Of a stretch of 64,000 nucleotides of DNA, positions 33,672-56,846 are shown in pieces. The stretch covers positions 36,475-100,474 of the forward strand of contig JAJDYG010000019.1 of the NCBI GenBank assembly GCA_022822855.1, in the 5' to 3' direction. Made by a program: the position numbers and the translations under genes. Position 1 is the first letter of the stretch, and each line of letters starts with the position of its first letter. Below the pieces are notes generated by a model. The model had not been told where the DNA came from. It saw nothing but the letters and a program-made list of their open reading frames with translations, and ran no database searches. The stretch comes from Dehalococcoidia bacterium. Its GTDB lineage: Bacteria; Chloroflexota; Dehalococcoidia; Bin125.

Positions 33672-34110
33672 CCCTCCCCAGTCCCCGCTTCATGCGGAGC
33701 CTGCCCCCGACTTGTTCGGGGAACCCGTTCCCTCCGAGTCCGGCGCGGGCGACCACAAGGGTCGCCCCTACAAGGCTTCGATTCTGGATCACTGAAGACC
33801 TTCCCCTCCCGTCCGATGCCCCGTGCTTGACACGGGGCCCAGAGCAACCGACTCCGCCAGAGCGACTACGTCCCGCCTCACCTCGGACGCCGCGACCCAT
33901 GATCCCAGTCCCCGCTTCATGCGGGGACCCGCTCCCTCCCCCTCCCCCCTTCCCCCGTCCGATGCCCCGTGCTTGACACGGGGCCCAGACCTCCCAACTT
34001 CGCCAGGCCGACCAACGCCAGCCTCACCTCAACCGCCGAAACCCCTCCCTCCCCAGTCCCCGCTTCATGCGGAGCCTGCCCCCGACTTGATCGGGGGGAC
34101 CCGCTCCCGT
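33672..34110. repeat. Composite array of short palindromic repeat elements (families C and D) in a long non-coding stretch
   Basis: cagtccccgcttcatgcgg(ag/gg) occurs 3 times and cccccgacttgWtcgggg 2 times. An ~85-bp unit ccgatgccccgtgcttgacacggggcccaga...cctcacctc is duplicated in direct orientation at ~33812 and ~33958. Confidence 0.6.
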
Positions 34111-34211
34111 CCCTCTCCCTCCGCAAACCCCAACACACTCACACCTGCCCACGCAGAACACCAGTACATATACCATCAACCTCCAACACACGTTCACAGA
34201 TAGGACCGGCC

Positions 34212-34544
34212 ATGAGCACCCCGCAATACACCCCGCAAGCCATCCAGGACCGCTACTGGACAATCGCCAACGACCCCAACGAACGCGGCTACTCCCAGGT
34301 CCGGGCGCTCGACTCCCTCTGTCGGCTCCTCGACCTCTTCCCGCGAGGTCAGCAGCCCGCCCCGGATCCACCCCAACCCGAACAGATCGATCCCAACCTC
34401 CTCATCGCCGGCATGACCGACGCACAGATCGACGCCCTGATCGCCAGAGAACAAGCCGAAGCGGAAGCCAAGGCCAAGGCGGAAGCCGAGCGGACCGAGG
34501 AGGACGACGAAGCGTCCAGCGAGGAAGAGGATGATCCGCTCTAA
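34212..34544 (+). CDS. Hypothetical small protein with acidic/Ala-Glu-Lys-rich C-terminus
   Basis: 110-aa ORF with ATG at 34212. N-terminal half is protein-like (YWTIANDPNERGYSQVRALDSLCRLLDLFP). C-terminal EAEAKAKAEAERTEEDDEASSEEEDD. Confidence 0.3.
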   Translation: MSTPQYTPQAIQDRYWTIANDPNERGYSQVRALDSLCRLLDLFPRGQQPAPDPPQPEQIDPNLLIAGMTDAQIDALIAREQAEAEAKAKAEAERTEEDDEASSEEEDDPL

Positions 34545-34672
34545 TACCCCAACCGCGTTTTTTTCTCTCGCACGCACGCCCAGAACCCGACGACCAGCGG
34601 GATCCGGCCCCGCACACCCACTTCCTGCCTCTCCCAAACAGCGAGGTCTGGTCTTCCGCACCCTGCCTCAGA

Positions 34673-34740
34673 GGGACCCCCTCTGTCACTTCGTGACATC
34701 TCCCCCTTGGATCGGGGGAGAAAGGGGAGGGAGGGGTTTC
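34673..34740. repeat. Family B structured repeat
   Basis: ccccctctgtcacttcgtgacatctcccccttggatcgggggagaaagggg. Confidence 0.55.
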
Positions 34741-34749
34741 GGCGCTGTG

Positions 34750-34835
34750 GAGGTGAGGCTGGCGGTGGTTGGCCTGGCGGAGTTGGTTGCTCTGGGCCCC
34801 GTGTCAAGCACGGGGCATCGGGAGGGGGCGGGGGA
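34750..34835. repeat. Inverted copy of the ~85-bp family D element found at 33812 and 33958
   Basis: Its reverse complement reads ccgatgccccgtgcttgacacggggcccagagcaaccaactccgccaggccaaccaccgccagcctcacctc. Confidence 0.55.
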
Positions 34836-34856
34836 GGAGCTGTTGCGGGCTGATGG

Positions 34857-51411: not shown

Positions 51412-54036
51412 ATGGCGACGATCACGATCAATGGACAGGCGGTTGAGGCCGAGGTTGGCGCTCCGCTGGTCGAGGTCATCAAGAACGCCGGTTTCGCGAT
51501 CTCCAACCTCTGCTACCTGGACGGGCTACCCCCGTATGCGGGCTGCCGAACCTGCGCCGTCGAAGTCGAAGGCATGCGTGGACTGCCGTTGTCCTGCACG
51601 ACCAATGTGATGGACGGCATGGTCGTGCGCACCGACACGCCCGAAGTGACCGAGATGCGCCAGGAAGTCCTGGCGGTGATCCTGGCCAACCACTCCGACC
51701 GCTGCCTGACCTGTCACCGAATCGAACACTGCCGAACGGGAGAAATCTGCCTGCGCGACAACGAGGTCACGCATCGCTGCGTGACCTGCTCCAAGAACTA
51801 CCGCTGCGAACTGCAAACCACCTGCGACGCCGCCGATGTCGGCCGCGCCAATGTCGAGCCGTACATCGACGAGGCTCGCACCTACTACCGCCACTCTCAG
51901 CCCGAGCCGGACCGAGCGAATCCATTCTTTGAGTTCGATCCGCAGATGTGCATCATCTGCACGCGCTGTGTCCGCGCCTGCGACGATCTGCGCCACACGA
52001 CGGCGATCACGCTGGCCGGTCGCGGGTTCTCAACCAGGATCGCGTTCGGAGCCGGCGGCCGGATCGATGAGTCCAACTGCGACTTCTGCGGCTCCTGCGT
52101 GGATGTCTGCCCAACGGCGACGCTGATGGAAGCGCCGAACAAGTGGGTCGCGCGACCCGACCGCTGGGTGACGACGACCTGCACCGAGTGCTCGATGGGC
52201 TGCACGATCCAGATGGGCGTGCGCGACGGTCGCGGCATCCAGGTCCGACCGGGCAACGGTAACGATGTGTCCCGCTCGCAGATCTGCGTGCGCGGCCGCT
52301 TTGGCTACGACCAGACCCGAGACAAGGACCGGCTGCGCGCCGCTTGGATCGGGCGCGGCGAGGACGCCTTCGAGCAGGACGGCGACGCGGTGCTTGAGCA
52401 TGCCGCGGAGGCAGTGTCGGCGATTCTCGCCGAGCACGGTCCGTCGGCGGTTGGGATCCTCGGCTCCGGCCAGATGATGCTGGAGGAGCTGTACGCGCTG
52501 AAGACGCTGGCCGCTCGGCTCGGCGTCACGAACCTCGACTCTTCACTTGGGCCGGTGACCGCCGCGATCGGCGACGCGCTGACTGACGCGTTCGGCTCCG
52601 AGCACCTGCCCTCGCGCTTGACCTCGGTGGAATCGGCGGACCTGATCATTGCGATCGGCGACGACATCTCGGCGTCGAACAACGTGCTTGGCGTGCGGAT
52701 CAAGGACGCCGTCGCCAACAACGGCGCCTCGATGGTCAGCATTTCTTCGCGACGCAACCCGCTCGCCGACTACGCGGTTGACGAAGCGCACGCGATTCAC
52801 CCGCCCAACGGCGACCTCGCTGCAGTGGCGCAAGCCCTGGCGACCAATGTCGTCAAGGATCTCGACGTTCGGACCGGACTGTCGGATGTCGAGGGGCTCT
52901 CGGACGTGACCGGCAATGCAGAGGGCATTGCCCCGGCGACATCGACGATTCTGCGACGACGCGGCGGCTCGGTGGCCATCGTCGTTGCTCCGTCCCGCTC
53001 CAACTCGACCCAGGCGGGCGCGCAGGTTCGCGCTGCCGCCAACCTGGCCATCGCTCTGGCCGGACCGGCGGACGCTCCGGCCGCGCTGCATGTCCTGCCC
53101 CCGGAGTCCAACTCGGTCGGCCTGCGCGACCTCGGCGTGGTTCCCGGCGATGGCGGGCTGGGCGTCACGGAGATGCTTGAAGCGGCCCGCAGCGGCAGCC
53201 TCAAGGCGCTGATCGTCGCCCGCGACAACCCGGTGCTCCTGCATCCCGATCGCGCCTCGACACTGTCGGCGCTCGACGCGCTCGACGCGCTTGTGGTGAT
53301 CGACGAAGTCGCGACGGAAACCGTGCAACACGCGACCCATGTGCTCCCTGACGTCTCCGCCTTCAGCAAGGACGGACACACGACCAACGCCGACCGCCAG
53401 ATTCTGCGGCTGCGCACAGCGACCGATGAACAGCGCAACGCCCGCCCACTCGGGCGTTGGCTGCGCGACATCGCCAAGCATCTCCCGGCCGTCGACACGC
53501 CGACAACCGACGAGAACGGCGAACCGGGCGAGCCGATTCCGGCTCCGGCCCAGCCGCAGGATGTGCGCGAGGCCCGCTCGGCGCTGGCCGCCCTGGACAG
53601 CCGTTATGCCGCACTCGCCGAGCCCGGCCCGAACCAGACTCGGATGCCGATCAACGGCGCGGCGACCCAGCGCTTCCTCAGCGTGCCTGAGAGCGGCGCA
53701 ACCAACGGCGACGGCTCGCTGACCCTGCTCGTCGGACGTGACCTGTACACCGACCGTCTGACCGCTGCGCGCGGCGATCAGAACGCCGACCTGTTGCAGC
53801 GCTCCGAGGGCGTTCAGATCAATCCGGCGGACGCTGCGTCCAATGGATTCGAGGACGGCCAGAACCTGCGTCTGGCGGCGAACGACGCGCAGATCACTCT
53901 GCCGGCCGAGGTCACGGAAGACGTGCCGGCGGGCGCGATCTGGGCCTCGGCGCTCCACAATGGCGGCGCAATCCAGGCGCTGCAGTCAGCCGGCGCCGAG
54001 CGGATTGCGTCGGTCCAGGTCAGCGCCGCCGACTAG
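51412..54036 (+). CDS. nuoG: NADH-quinone oxidoreductase subunit G-like (NuoG; 2Fe-2S, 4Fe-4S and molybdopterin-oxidoreductase-like domains)
   Basis: CYLDGLPPYAGCRTCAVEV (2Fe-2S), CxxCxxxC / CxxCxxC clusters, a long C-terminal MopB-like region, and the typical ITINGQ N-terminus. Confidence 0.6.
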   Translation: MATITINGQAVEAEVGAPLVEVIKNAGFAISNLCYLDGLPPYAGCRTCAVEVEGMRGLPLSCTTNVMDGMVVRTDTPEVTEMRQEVLAVILANHSDRCLTCHRIEHCRTGEICLRDNEVTHRCVTCSKNYRCELQTTCDAADVGRANVEPYIDEARTYYRHSQPEPDRANPFFEFDPQMCIICTRCVRACDDLRHTTAITLAGRGFSTRIAFGAGGRIDESNCDFCGSCVDVCPTATLMEAPNKWVARPDRWVTTTCTECSMGCTIQMGVRDGRGIQVRPGNGNDVSRSQICVRGRFGYDQTRDKDRLRAAWIGRGEDAFEQDGDAVLEHAAEAVSAILAEHGPSAVGILGSGQMMLEELYALKTLAARLGVTNLDSSLGPVTAAIGDALTDAFGSEHLPSRLTSVESADLIIAIGDDISASNNVLGVRIKDAVANNGASMVSISSRRNPLADYAVDEAHAIHPPNGDLAAVAQALATNVVKDLDVRTGLSDVEGLSDVTGNAEGIAPATSTILRRRGGSVAIVVAPSRSNSTQAGAQVRAAANLAIALAGPADAPAALHVLPPESNSVGLRDLGVVPGDGGLGVTEMLEAARSGSLKALIVARDNPVLLHPDRASTLSALDALDALVVIDEVATETVQHATHVLPDVSAFSKDGHTTNADRQILRLRTATDEQRNARPLGRWLRDIAKHLPAVDTPTTDENGEPGEPIPAPAQPQDVREARSALAALDSRYAALAEPGPNQTRMPINGAATQRFLSVPESGATNGDGSLTLLVGRDLYTDRLTAARGDQNADLLQRSEGVQINPADAASNGFEDGQNLRLAANDAQITLPAEVTEDVPAGAIWASALHNGGAIQALQSAGAERIASVQVSAAD

Positions 54037-54061
54037 GGCGTGTTCACACTAGTCCGATTCC

Positions 54062-54092
54062 GCGTCGCCCCGTGCTTGACACGGGGCGACGA
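54062..54092. repeat. Partial family D hairpin (ccccgtgcttgacacgggg) downstream of nuoG
   Basis: Same palindrome as in the 33812, 33958 and 34795 copies. Confidence 0.45.
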
Positions 54093-54413
54093 TCCTTTGC
54101 GGTATTGCGATAGGCGTGGGTTGTTCTGTCCTGCGTCGAATTGCGCCAACGTGGATCATCTCGCTGAGACAGAAGTGTGCACACGCCCTAGCCCGATCCA
54201 ACAGCTCGATTGATCCTCGGGATCCGGGGGCGGTATTTGCTTGTGGATGTTTGAATCGAGAACTCCTGCAGTTTGGAGTTCGTGTCAGTCTCTCTCGGAT
54301 CGCGATAAACTGACAGCCAGCCAGACGCTTATGACCCTGTGTTGAGTCCGCATCCCGTTTCCAGTCCCAGCCTGTTCACTTAGACCGACCGCTAGCCGAA
54401 GAATCGATTTGAC

Positions 54414-55682
54414 ATGGTTTTGCACCACCCTGACTCCGAACCCCAAACACCTCGCGGACACTACGTGTTCGTCGATGGCCCCTCGATTGATGGCACGCTG
54501 GGCCGAGTGATCGGCCAGCCGCCCGGTCCGGACACGCGACCGGACTGGCGGCGTCTCGAGACGTTCGTCAAGCAGCATTGCGGCCCCGCTCCCTACGAAG
54601 CGACGTTCGTCTTCTGGGCGCCGGGACAGCAGGGATTCATGCACTTCCTGCGCACCTCGGGATTCATGATCGCGCTGGGCGACCGCTTCGTCCCTGGCCA
54701 GAGCTGCGCCGATCTGATTCGCGAGCGGATCGCGAGGCTCAACCAGGCTGCCGACGAAACCCAACCCTGGCAAGTCATCGTCGGCACCCACAATCCCGAT
54801 CTGATCGCCGAACTGCCAGAACTGGCCGACATGGCCGAGCGGATTACGGTGTTCGGATTCTCGGAATTCTTGCCGGACGCCCCGGAGCTCGAGGAGCAGA
54901 TCGATTTCTACGACATCGAGGACGACGCCCGGCTGTTTCGATCGCAGCTTCCGCGCGTCGAGTTCGACGACGACCTCGACGAAGCCCCGGACGGTCTGCC
55001 CGAGCCCGGTTACCAGCCTCCGCTGGTCGACCCGCCCGCCCTTGAGCCGGCTCCGCTGCGCACATTCGCGCCCCGCCCTCCTCGCCCAGTAGGTGATGTC
55101 AGAGAGCTCTACCTGGTCGTTGACGGCCGAAGCATCGAGAAGGAACTCGGCGAGATCCTCGGTGAGAAGCCCAACCCGGGAACGCGTCCGGACTGGGGTA
55201 CGGTGCTCGACTTCGCCCGCTCCCAGTCTCAATCCCCGGACGGCGACGTGAAGGCGCTCTTCGCCCACATCGCCCCAGGTCACGCCGGATTCCGCCGGGC
55301 GCTGAAGGACCTGGGCTACACCTCCAGCCCTGTTCGACCCGACGACACACAGCCAATGCGGCCCGTCGTCGAAGAGTTCATTTGCGGTTTGCTTGGAGCT
55401 CGCGCCTTACGCGGCGAGGCCGGCGATGATCCAGCCCCGGACATCATTGTGATCGGCCACGGCCAGCCGATCTTCGATGCGCTGAGCGACATTCCCGATC
55501 GCGGACAACGTCTGTGCGCGCTCGGCTTCCCCGAGCGGATGCCGGCGACCGAGTTCTATCCCCGCGTCGAGCAGCTTGATCTCGAGCGGGACGCCCAGGC
55601 GTTCGGAGCCGAGTTGCCCAGGGAGTTCGGCGTCGATGTCGACGACTTCGACCCCGACGAAGAACTCTCGCGCCTGTTCTGA
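54414..55682 (+). CDS. Protein with two tandem NYN/LabA-like (PIN-fold) domains
   Basis: Internal duplication: YVFVDGPSIDGTLGRVIGQPPGPDTRPDWRRLETFVKQ versus YLVVDGRSIEKELGEILGEKPNPGTRPDWGTVLDFARSQ. Each half has a Vx(V/F)VDG..I start as in NYN domains. Confidence 0.4.
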   Translation: MVLHHPDSEPQTPRGHYVFVDGPSIDGTLGRVIGQPPGPDTRPDWRRLETFVKQHCGPAPYEATFVFWAPGQQGFMHFLRTSGFMIALGDRFVPGQSCADLIRERIARLNQAADETQPWQVIVGTHNPDLIAELPELADMAERITVFGFSEFLPDAPELEEQIDFYDIEDDARLFRSQLPRVEFDDDLDEAPDGLPEPGYQPPLVDPPALEPAPLRTFAPRPPRPVGDVRELYLVVDGRSIEKELGEILGEKPNPGTRPDWGTVLDFARSQSQSPDGDVKALFAHIAPGHAGFRRALKDLGYTSSPVRPDDTQPMRPVVEEFICGLLGARALRGEAGDDPAPDIIVIGHGQPIFDALSDIPDRGQRLCALGFPERMPATEFYPRVEQLDLERDAQAFGAELPREFGVDVDDFDPDEELSRLF

Positions 55683-55691
55683 ATCGGCCGA

Positions 55692-56846
55692 CTACAGGTC
55701 GAACGGCAACAGACTGCCGATCCCGAACGTCACCGCGGCGGCGAGGATGCCGACGAACACCGATCGGCTCGCCGAGTACAGCGGGTTGCGGCTCGTCACG
55801 AGAGACGTGAACAGGCCCGCGACCGCCAGCGCGGCCACGCTGCCGATCACTCCGGCGATCAGCGCCCAGTAGTCGACGCTCCAGCCGGCGGCGTGCCAGA
55901 CCAGGAACGGAACGAGTGGAATCAGCGCCCCCAATGAGAACGAGGCGAACGAGCTGATCGCCGCTCGCCACGGATCGCCAAGCTGCTCGGGGTCGAGTCC
56001 CAGTTCCTCGCGAACCATCGTGTCGACCAGCGCATCAGGTTTCTTGGACAGTTCCGTCGCCACCTGCTCAGCCAGCTCTTCCGACAACCCCTTGGCCCGG
56101 TAGATGCTGACCAGCTCGCGGCGTTCCTCGGCCGGATCGAGCAGAACTTCGTCCCGCTCCATCGCGATCTGCTTCTGCAGCACCTCCGACTGTCCGCGCA
56201 CGGAGATGTACTCGCCGGCGGCCATCGAGAAGGCCCCTGCCAGCCACCCGCCGATTCCCGCGACCAGCACCGCTTCCGAACCAATCGCCACGCCGGCGAC
56301 GCCGGCAATCAGTGCCAGGTTCGACACGATGCCGTCGTTGAGTCCAAACAGCGCAGCGCGAAACGTCGATGCACCCTGAGAGCCGACGCCGGCATGCCCT
56401 TCTCCGACCGCGCCCACGGCGCCGAACTGCGTGCCGAGCTCGGCCAGCGTCGCGCGGTGTTCGCGCTCTTCCTCAGCGAGGTCGCCGGAGTCCGGGTCCA
56501 GGACATATTTCTGGATATCGACCAGCTCCTCGCGCCGGAGCTGCGAAATCACGAAGCCAAGCCCCCAGAACCGGGCCTGAAAAGCCATCAGCCGCACGCG
56601 CAGCGACGGTCGATGGACGTCGGTCGGGAACCGTTCGTCGCCCAGCAGCCGGACCCAATGAGTGGCGTGCCGCAGTTCCGACTCGGCCATCGCGCTGAGC
56701 ATCGCAGCCGACTGGCCCTCGCTCATCCCCGCGAGCCGATCGTAAAGCCAGGCCGCGTCGAGCTCGTCGCCGATCATTTCGCGCAGCCGCGCGCGGCGCT
56801 CGTCGGTCAGCGGGACATGTGCCTGGGGCGGATCCATCGTGGTCAT
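55692..56846 (-). CDS. mbfA: Ferritin-like (rubrerythrin/Er) domain fused to VIT1/CCC1 iron-manganese transporter domain (MbfA-like)
   Basis: N-terminal ELRHATHWVRLL-type diiron helix pair. C-terminal VIT1 pattern (LFGLNDGIVSNLALIAGVAG ... five TM helices). Confidence 0.5.
   Translation of the reverse strand: MTTMDPPQAHVPLTDERRARLREMIGDELDAAWLYDRLAGMSEGQSAAMLSAMAESELRHATHWVRLLGDERFPTDVHRPSLRVRLMAFQARFWGLGFVISQLRREELVDIQKYVLDPDSGDLAEEEREHRATLAELGTQFGAVGAVGEGHAGVGSQGASTFRAALFGLNDGIVSNLALIAGVAGVAIGSEAVLVAGIGGWLAGAFSMAAGEYISVRGQSEVLQKQIAMERDEVLLDPAEERRELVSIYRAKGLSEELAEQVATELSKKPDALVDTMVREELGLDPEQLGDPWRAAISSFASFSLGALIPLVPFLVWHAAGWSVDYWALIAGVIGSVAALAVAGLFTSLVTSRNPLYSASRSVFVGILAAAVTFGIGSLLPFDL

Follow-up and report, generated by a model that had tools for sequence, protein, structure and literature searches.

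A tandem NYN-like protein of Dehalococcoidia with degenerate active sites in both domains: a candidate pseudonuclease

Described NYN systems and the tandem NYN gene

NYN/LabA-type domains are abundant in bacteria. As a 2017 survey of the PIN superfamily pointed out, functional studies of the bacterial domains were still lacking (PMC5499597). We analysed a 64,000-nt stretch of a Dehalococcoidia bacterium genome (assembly GCA_022822855.1, contig JAJDYG010000019.1, positions 36,475 to 100,474; hereafter the window) and focused on one of its genes, which encodes a 422-residue protein with two NYN-like domains in tandem. The closest solved structures are those of LabA/limkain-b1 NYN proteins (PF01936; VPA0982, 2qip; MARF1, 5yaa/6fdl). 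The NYN site of MARF1 consists of Asp358, Asp426, Asp427 and Asp452, and a D426A/D427A mutant has strongly lowered activity (PMC6294520). In contrast to these proteins, the 422-residue protein lacks a direct Pfam match and carries its domains as a pair; the equivalent of Asp452 is lost twice, and that of Asp426 is either lost or present as glutamate. It also has subfamily-specific extras, namely an RPxW loop and a conserved C-terminal tail (D.E.D..F...LPR...FDP).

By sequence, the closest group consists of actinobacterial single-domain NYN proteins (from Cellulomonas, Actinotalea and others), which have the RPxW loop, the GFxE motif and the C-terminal tail in common with the tandem protein. 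They differ from it in having one domain of ~190 residues with an intact D..N.D / VVD / SHD set, and they belong to another phylum. These relatives probably correspond to the NYN.2 / Rv0207c-like group of the 2017 survey, which we take as a lead only. That group comprises single-domain proteins from Actinobacteria or plants whose genes neighbour those for TrmB and an MmpL (MmpL3) pump (Matelska et al. 2017, PMC5499597). The TrmB/MmpL neighbourhood was not seen in the genomic contexts of two relatives (Stomatohabitans and Cellulomonas), and the window's protein does not fit the group's description, being a two-domain Chloroflexota protein encoded between a NuoG-like gene and VIT1. Other tandem NYN proteins of Chloroflexota (P0067–P0069, P0071 and P0208; loci L049 and L050) share both the two-domain architecture and the genomic slot, but their C-terminal halves have the full D-N-D...D...S-[HN]-D set, their N-terminal halves are far more degenerate, and some of them carry an L7/L12 domain.

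Selection for a PIN-like fold whose catalytic acids are lost, as in the protein studied here, has precedents in SMG5/SMG6, Utp23/Utp24 and C. elegans NYN-1/RDE-8. The known PIN/NYN pseudonucleases partner active paralogues, in an RNA-binding or scaffolding role (PMC6294520; PMC5499597; bioRxiv 10.64898/2026.09.04.749402). They are eukaryotic and paired with a separate active subunit, whereas in the tandem protein degeneracy affects both domains of a single bacterial polypeptide. A precedent for ribosome-linked NYN nucleases is Rae1/YacP, a ribosome-associated endoribonuclease of Bacillus subtilis (PMC12407103). It belongs to a different NYN family (NYN_YacP, PF05991) and is single-domain and active; the tandem protein is structurally far closer to the LabA type. 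In the literature searched, we found no description of a bacterial polypeptide whose NYN domains are both degenerate, nor of L12-fused NYN orthologues.

Fold, active sites and selection

The gene and the domains of its product are laid out as follows.

54414..55682, plus strand: tandem NYN-like protein gene, 422 residues plus stop codon (open reading frame list, 63 homologue clusters, ratio of nonsynonymous to synonymous substitution rates, dN/dS)
54453..54962, plus strand: N-terminal NYN-like domain, residues ~14–183 (AlphaFold and hhalign)
54963..55097, plus strand: disordered, acidic, proline-rich linker, residues ~184–228 (predicted local distance difference test, pLDDT; variable length; dN/dS)
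55098..55679, plus strand: C-terminal NYN-like domain, residues ~229–422 (homologue alignment, AlphaFold and hhalign)

The open reading frame encodes 422 residues, as the initial annotation of this DNA had it, and its start codon is backed by Met1, which is invariant across 35 aligned homologues. The product is a soluble protein of two diverged NYN domains (LabA/limkain-b1 'LK-nuclease', PIN-like) joined by a disordered linker. It is very acidic, with an isoelectric point of 4.5 and a net charge of -37. On the minus strand, an open reading frame of 332 residues (54285–55283) overlaps most of the gene; it was rejected as a real gene and is taken to be a high-GC shadow frame, since conservation tracks the plus-strand frame.

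The two halves are homologous: residues 1–209 and 210–422 align by BLASTP over 191 columns with 30% identity (E=8e-23). The paired motifs that had led the initial annotation to propose an internal duplication are present, YVFVDGPSIDG...PGPDTRPDW in residues 17–45 and YLVVDGRSIEK...PNPGTRPDW in residues 233–261. The duplication is not recent, however; the halves are old, diverged paralogous domains, as their different nearest relatives indicate. The N-terminal half is closest to single-domain proteins of a 'DGPN' type, such as P0075 and P0112 (58–82 bits), and is not similar to the N-terminal halves of other tandem relatives (17–31 bits). The C-terminal half groups with the C-terminal halves of other tandem proteins (48–71 bits) and with single-domain proteins of a 'DGEN' type.

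Neither the whole protein nor either half matched any Pfam or NCBIfam model at E<=10, so that a direct hit to the Pfam NYN model (PF01936) at its gathering score is likewise missing. A profile of the protein's own family reaches no NYN structure in the PDB directly, and an intermediate single-domain clade was therefore needed for the comparison; the sole PDB match of the own-family profile, a guanylate kinase (E=0.66), was judged spurious. Aligned by hhalign to the canonical single-domain NYN clade, both halves score a probability of 100% (E=7.5e-40 for the N-terminal and 6.1e-42 for the C-terminal half), with 28% identity each at the profile level. Members of that clade reach the PF01936 gathering score, and its profile finds VPA0982 (2qip) at E=2.5e-8 and the MARF1 NYN domains at E=8.5e-7 and 4.5e-6. 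AlphaFold predicts two Rossmann-like domains of alternating strands and helices, with a mean pLDDT of 87.3 for the whole protein, above 88 throughout the N-terminal domain and below 50 at linker residues 185–212. Foldseek matches the model to 2qip (E=1.8e-4, template modelling score, TM, 0.73) and to MARF1 (TM 0.72), in keeping with the three-layer alpha/beta/alpha architecture of PIN-like proteins. Both domains thus have the NYN fold, as had been proposed for each half from its opening motif.

Several features of the subfamily that lie outside the catalytic set are found in both halves: R-P-x-W, G-F-x-E and a D-x-E-x-D..F...L-P-x-R tail. The N-terminal domain retains D21, S24, D26, RPDW (42–45), GFSE (148–151) and the tail DIEDDARLFRSQLPR (167–181). 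The C-terminal domain retains D237, RPDW (258–261), GFPE (371–374) and the tail DLERDAQAF..LPR, and also has the invariant, family-specific residues H285, P288, G289, H290, H349 and Q365.

The canonical relatives conserve the set D..N.D / VVD / SHD, and profile alignment places the aspartate of 'VVD' at MARF1 Asp426 and that of 'SHD' at Asp452. Among the departures of the tandem protein from this set are the following.

54708..54713, plus strand: A99-D100 at the canonical VV-D-E position; A99 replaces the Asp426 equivalent, and D100 aligns with Asp427
54786..54800, plus strand: T125-H126-N127-P128-D129, a degenerate S-H-D-x-D; N127 replaces the Asp452 equivalent
55371..55376, plus strand: E320-E321 where canonical relatives have D-E; Asp is conservatively replaced by Glu at the Asp426 equivalent
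55455..55469, plus strand: G348-H349-G350-Q351-P352, a degenerate S-H-D-x-D; G350 replaces the Asp452 equivalent

To see how general these replacements are, we counted residues by column in 79 single-domain canonical relatives, 35 N-terminal halves and 35 C-terminal halves; the residue correspondences agree with those given by the hhalign alignments. The first aspartate is invariant in all three sets (79/79, 35/35 and 35/35). Three residues further on, asparagine is found in 75 of the 79 single-domain relatives, while the N-terminal halves have serine and the C-terminal halves serine (28) or asparagine (7). At the Asp426-equivalent column, 77/79 single-domain relatives have aspartate and 33/35 C-terminal halves glutamate; the three commonest residues in the N-terminal halves are alanine (20), valine (8) and serine (3). 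The Asp452-equivalent column holds aspartate in 77/79 single-domain relatives, but most often asparagine (25), aspartate (5) or glutamine (4) in the N-terminal halves and glycine (26), serine (7) or aspartate (1) in the C-terminal halves. The histidine of the S-H-D motif is present in 29/35 N-terminal and in all 35 C-terminal halves.

Neither half therefore shows the full acidic cluster of MARF1 Asp358/426/427/452: the equivalents are D21/A99/D100/N127 in the N-terminal and D237/E320/E321/G350 in the C-terminal half. As judged from these alignments, no Asp452 equivalent is left in either domain, and the N-terminal one is without the Asp426 equivalent as well. The initial annotation had noticed HNPD (126–129) and HGQP (349–352) as replacements of an acidic motif. 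Both do sit at the canonical S-H-D-x-D, which is the last acidic position rather than the second, and the additional loss of the Asp426 equivalent in the N-terminal half had gone unremarked.

A homologue search of 5.8 billion proteins returned 63 clusters at 41–97% identity, nearly all of them full-length two-domain proteins and none with a precomputed Pfam domain. All 37 genome loci (37/37) come from metagenome-assembled genomes of Chloroflexota/Dehalococcoidia, many apparently from sponge metagenomes by their isolate names. No Pfam or NCBIfam model covers this two-domain family, with which the sponge-associated and marine genomes of Dehalococcoidia gain an unannotated family. A profile search, run exhaustively over 1.84 billion representatives, yielded 371 relatives, including many single-domain proteins of ~190 residues and other tandem proteins; most of the distant relatives tested exceed the Pfam NYN (PF01936) threshold. 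In the other tandem relatives (P0067–P0204), a strongly degenerate N-terminal half (DYYRF..GGD) is combined with a canonical C-terminal half (D-N-D-R-W-D-S-[HN]-D). Among tandem relatives, only the window's family has additionally lost the C-terminal site.

Against 22–23 relatives, the median dN/dS is 0.11 for the N-terminal half, 0.07 for the C-terminal half and 0.48 for the linker, rough values because dS is saturated; for the gene overall, dN/dS is 0.11. Invariant residues number 29 in the N-terminal and 39 in the C-terminal half, while the linker differs in length among homologues and is unalignable. These values indicate that both domains are under strong purifying selection and that the gene is not decaying. 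Taken together, a retained fold, lost catalytic residues and purifying selection (dN/dS 0.07–0.11) match the profile expected of a pseudonuclease, as far as comparative data can indicate.

Genomic slot and proposed function

In every member examined, as in the window, the gene order is the same: a NuoG-like Fe-S/molybdopterin protein gene, the tandem NYN gene, a convergent VIT1 gene and HisG. This block is nested in a wider syntenic neighbourhood. The more distant tandem NYN genes of L049 (6001–7632) and L050 (6001–7524 and 8263–10080) occupy the same NuoG-like/VIT1/HisG slot, and their C-terminal NYN sites are intact. In L049, the protein (P0069) ends in a ribosomal L7/L12 C-terminal domain (Pfam E=1.9e-18). 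The two tandem NYN genes of L050 are adjacent, and one of them encodes 605 residues with an L12 domain; P0071 is a further L12 fusion. One Dehalococcoidia genome holds a second gene copy, 62% identical, outside the usual slot (L039/L052, 8001–9257, OZ241982.1). The L052 copy is divergent from a GAF-PAS-HisKA-REC-Trans_reg_C hybrid kinase gene and lies upstream of a 195-residue open reading frame without a Pfam match. Upstream of the slot, in loci L003–L010, the NuoG-like gene is set apart from NuoB/NuoI-like genes, and putative endonuclease genes of the Uma2 family (PF05685) are interspersed between them in several copies; in one locus, L004, DDE transposase fragments also lie upstream of the NuoG-like gene.

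We favour, with moderate confidence, a reading in which the tandem protein is a non-cutting pseudonuclease that binds an ancestral ligand, works in a translation-linked arena and is made from its own transcript with an unstructured leader. The suggestion of a degenerate or regulatory nuclease, made in the initial annotation, is borne out in that a key aspartate is lost in both domains while the fold is kept; non-cleavage itself is read from sequence. The protein would no longer cleave RNA in the metal-dependent way of its relatives. It could still bind the ligand of its ancestors, be it RNA or a protein partner, and might regulate, shield or compete rather than cut; that ligand would be the RNA or factor targeted by the active relatives. 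The most likely arena would be the translation apparatus or ribosome-associated RNA, because positional orthologues with an intact C-terminal site exist, some of them fused to L7/L12, and because Rae1 offers a precedent. If so, the locus would offer a clear-cut case, from nature, of a pseudonuclease of the bacterial NYN type whose two domains are degenerate yet tightly conserved, and the positional orthologues with an active site would provide ready-made active/inactive comparisons. Orthologues are recurrently fused to the L7/L12 C-terminal domain, a concrete hint, open to test, that this NYN subfamily targets the translation machinery.

Several observations weigh against this reading. The strong acidity is atypical for a general RNA binder, albeit catalytic relatives are acidic too. 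Five of the 35 N-terminal halves have aspartate at the position of residue 127. The predicted TM score of the AlphaFold model is 0.52, and the packing of the two domains against each other is thus not predicted with confidence. The window's own family lacks the L12 domain, so that the link to translation depends on distant orthologues. No partner gene stands out, and adjacency is weakly informative on function, given that the whole neighbourhood is syntenic. For a separate transcript, a consensus scan of 53800–56000 for sigma-70 two-hexamer promoters and intrinsic terminators found no sites. Finally, four acidic residues (D237, E/D242, E320 and E321) lie near the C-terminal site, together with the invariant histidines H285, H290 and H349.

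This last point leads to the main rival, a remodelled metal site in the C-terminal half (D237, E320/E321, H285, H290 and H349). The protein would then still be an enzyme, hydrolysing RNA or another phosphoester with a different metal at one or both sites; besides the C-terminal residues just named, D21, D26, D100, D129 and H126 of the N-terminal half would be available. Such an enzyme would account for the invariance of the first aspartate in both halves, the retention of the S-H-D histidine and the very strong purifying selection. It would also give a role to the invariant H285, P288, G289, H290 and Q365, which by PIN-fold topology should lie at the C-terminal edge of the sheet, next to the old site. 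In PIN-like nucleases, however, loss of the strand-4 aspartate or of the Asp426-type residue accompanies inactivity, as in MARF1 D426A/D427A and in SMG5 compared with SMG6 (PMC6294520), and in Utp23 compared with Utp24 (PMC5499597). Moreover, the N-terminal half keeps just two to three canonical acidic positions. We consider a remodelled enzyme unlikely, if less so than any other alternative to the pseudonuclease.

The evolutionary tempo of the slot gene bears on a further alternative. The gene evolves unevenly relative to its neighbours, with NuoG-like identities of 83–84% in some lineages where the tandem protein shows 41–44%, a pattern compatible with differential retention of old paralogues. 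It could also reflect a toxin-like or defence module that evolves fast under conflict, akin to the mycobacterial Ms0251/Rv0207c NYN 'toxin', and the slot does hold differing tandem-NYN versions by lineage. Growth is inhibited when the NYN protein Ms0251 of M. smegmatis is overexpressed, and the neighbouring Ms0252 rescues this effect (PMC9769933). The locus shows none of the hallmarks of a toxin–antitoxin or anti-phage system, be it an adjacent small partner or antitoxin gene, PADLOC or PHROGs matches, flanking mobile-element genes or relatives on viral contigs. Its neighbours are housekeeping genes in fixed synteny, and the tandem NYN gene appears to be monocistronic. The catalytic residues that a toxin needs are missing, selection is purifying rather than diversifying, and Rv0207c may belong to a different clade from this protein. 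A toxin or defence role is thus highly improbable.

The fixed neighbours themselves could point to function, with the protein acting, for instance, in the assembly or regulation of the NuoG-like Fe-S/molybdopterin protein or, together with VIT1, in the handling of iron. The block of NuoG-like gene, tandem NYN gene, convergent VIT1 and HisG is kept in L049 and L050, where the tandem protein is only ~28–30% identical and the outer neighbours differ. IMG names canonical relatives 'putative heme uptake system protein', and a Cellulomonas single-domain relative lies ~2.7–4.7 kb from a ferrochelatase gene and a chlorite-dismutase-family gene, with others between. Against such a tie, the NuoG-like gene is divided from the tandem NYN gene by a hairpin and a promoter-like element of its own, VIT1 is convergent, and the second gene copy stands in unrelated surroundings (L052). 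The 'heme uptake' label derives from a mycobacterial genomic-region assignment, and what part the NYN protein plays was never studied there (PMC5499597). This explanation appears very doubtful to us.

A bolder extension of the pseudonuclease reading concerns the slot as a whole. The tandem NYN genes at this position across Chloroflexota might form an undescribed translation-linked RNase system, in which active forms dock through their L7/L12 domain to the ribosome or to translational GTPases; the window's family, doubly inactivated, would then survive as a dedicated regulator that might, for example, compete by binding the same RNA or factor without cleaving. We regard this as a long shot, less probable than a remodelled enzyme. 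If true, it would be a bacterial counterpart, within one polypeptide, of the pseudonuclease logic of SMG5/SMG6 or NYN-1/RDE-8.

Intergenic spacer and dispersed repeats

The spacer upstream of the gene contains the following elements.

54037..54413, plus strand: intergenic spacer of 377 nt, from the NuoG-like stop codon (54034–54036) to the ATG of the tandem NYN gene; GC 0.56, against 0.654 for the window
54037..54187, no strand assigned: window-specific segment of ~150 nt with a 14-nt inverted repeat (54037–54050 / 54174–54187, 13/14 complementary)
54064..54090, plus strand: GC-rich hairpin 28 nt past the NuoG-like stop codon, a likely terminator with no T-run (minimum free energy structure)
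54258..54281, no strand assigned: imperfect palindrome GAGAACTCC-N7-GGAGTTC, a possible regulator binding site (spacer alignment)
54304..54311, plus strand: GATAAACT, a -10-like box (TAnnnT) that is conserved and precedes the ATG by 102 nt (spacer alignment)
54318..54413, plus strand: inferred 5' untranslated region (UTR) of ~95 nt, predicted to be unstructured (folding z score and alignment; transcription start placed from conservation alone)

The initial annotation had singled out an unusually AT-rich leader of ~300 nt that could encode a structured element or a small RNA. The drop in GC is real, with values of 0.545–0.56 over 54100–54499 against ~0.62–0.75 in the 4-kb flanks on each side. 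It is not unusual, however: 300-nt windows below 0.58 GC occur in ten stretches of the whole window, several of which are deeper (0.497–0.527) than the leader dip (0.543). Relatives are alike. In 45 related loci, the homologous spacers have a GC of 0.49–0.65 against 0.62–0.685 for the locus, 3–15 points under their surroundings, and are 156–381 nt long, except for two copies in a different upstream context. Nor does the proposed length hold, as the spacer measures 377 nt and the part likely to be transcribed only ~95 nt. The spacer is longer than in relatives because of the ~150-nt window-specific segment.

The tandem NYN gene seems to have a transcript to itself, given the upstream hairpin, the conserved -10-like box ~100 nt before the ATG and the ~95-nt unstructured leader. 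In most of 34 aligned spacers, a GATAAGCT-like box is found 96–105 nt from the ATG. Close relatives have GxGAAC-N7-GTTCxC at the position of the palindrome, ~25 nt upstream of the -10-like box. The palindrome arms co-vary between relatives (L036, L025, L017, L020 and others); relative to the inferred transcription start, its centre lies ~50 nt upstream. The LexA box has the form GAAC-N4-GTTC, from which this palindrome differs. A strict GAAC-N7-GTTC match occurs at one other place in the window (5604), and thus no regulon can be inferred. The UTR sequence is poorly conserved except for the -10-like box and one short motif close ahead of the ATG. That motif is GAATCGA in the window, at -16 to -10, with no GGAGG Shine–Dalgarno sequence; close-clade UTRs likewise have a GAATCGA-like motif 10–16 nt before the ATG and no GGAGG, while distant members have AAGGAG.

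The near-constant distance from the box to the ATG suggests that UTR length is constrained, which, together with the GC below that of the surroundings, could fit a structured cis-regulatory leader (riboswitch or attenuator) or a small RNA controlling the gene. Folding speaks against both. There was no Rfam match, either for the leader at E<=10 or for the whole window at gathering thresholds. The whole spacer folds with z=-1.0, RNAalifold found zero consensus pairs and an empty structure for 24 homologous UTRs, and 10 of 12 homologous UTRs are less stable than shuffled controls, with z=+1.70 for that of the window. With a poorly conserved UTR sequence and a low GC that is normal for intergenic DNA in this window, a structured leader or small RNA is largely refuted, and we regard it as scarcely probable at all, the least so of the alternatives weighed here. 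No missed gene was found in the leader either: the open reading frames at 54040–54213 and 54116–54313 (57 and 65 residues) have no counterpart in the related loci compared. The spacer is best read, from its composition and alignment, as a putative terminator and promoter followed by an unstructured leader, and the leader is ordinary and of no special interest.

Part of the spacer belongs to a repeat that is dispersed in the window. The core of the 54064–54090 hairpin, GCCCCGTGCTTGACACGGGGC, a 21-nt palindrome with TTGACA in its loop, is found as an exact match at four places in the window, where 0.01 would be expected.

33818–33838: GCCCCGTGCTTGACACGGGGC copy, exact match
33964–33984: GCCCCGTGCTTGACACGGGGC copy, exact match
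34796–34816, minus strand: GCCCCGTGCTTGACACGGGGC copy, exact match
54067–54087: GCCCCGTGCTTGACACGGGGC copy, exact match

None of 51 related loci compared contains the palindrome, which looks like a strain-specific dispersed element of the repetitive extragenic palindromic (REP) kind. At 33800–34840, it is embedded in a ~91-nt repeat with three copies. Two of these form a direct pair (33808–33898 and 33954–34044, 81%), and inverted arms (33946–34036 / 34744–34834, 87% complementary) enclose ~707 nt of C-rich sequence. Open reading frames inside 33800–34840 have no Pfam match; the region may be a small element flanked by terminal inverted repeats.

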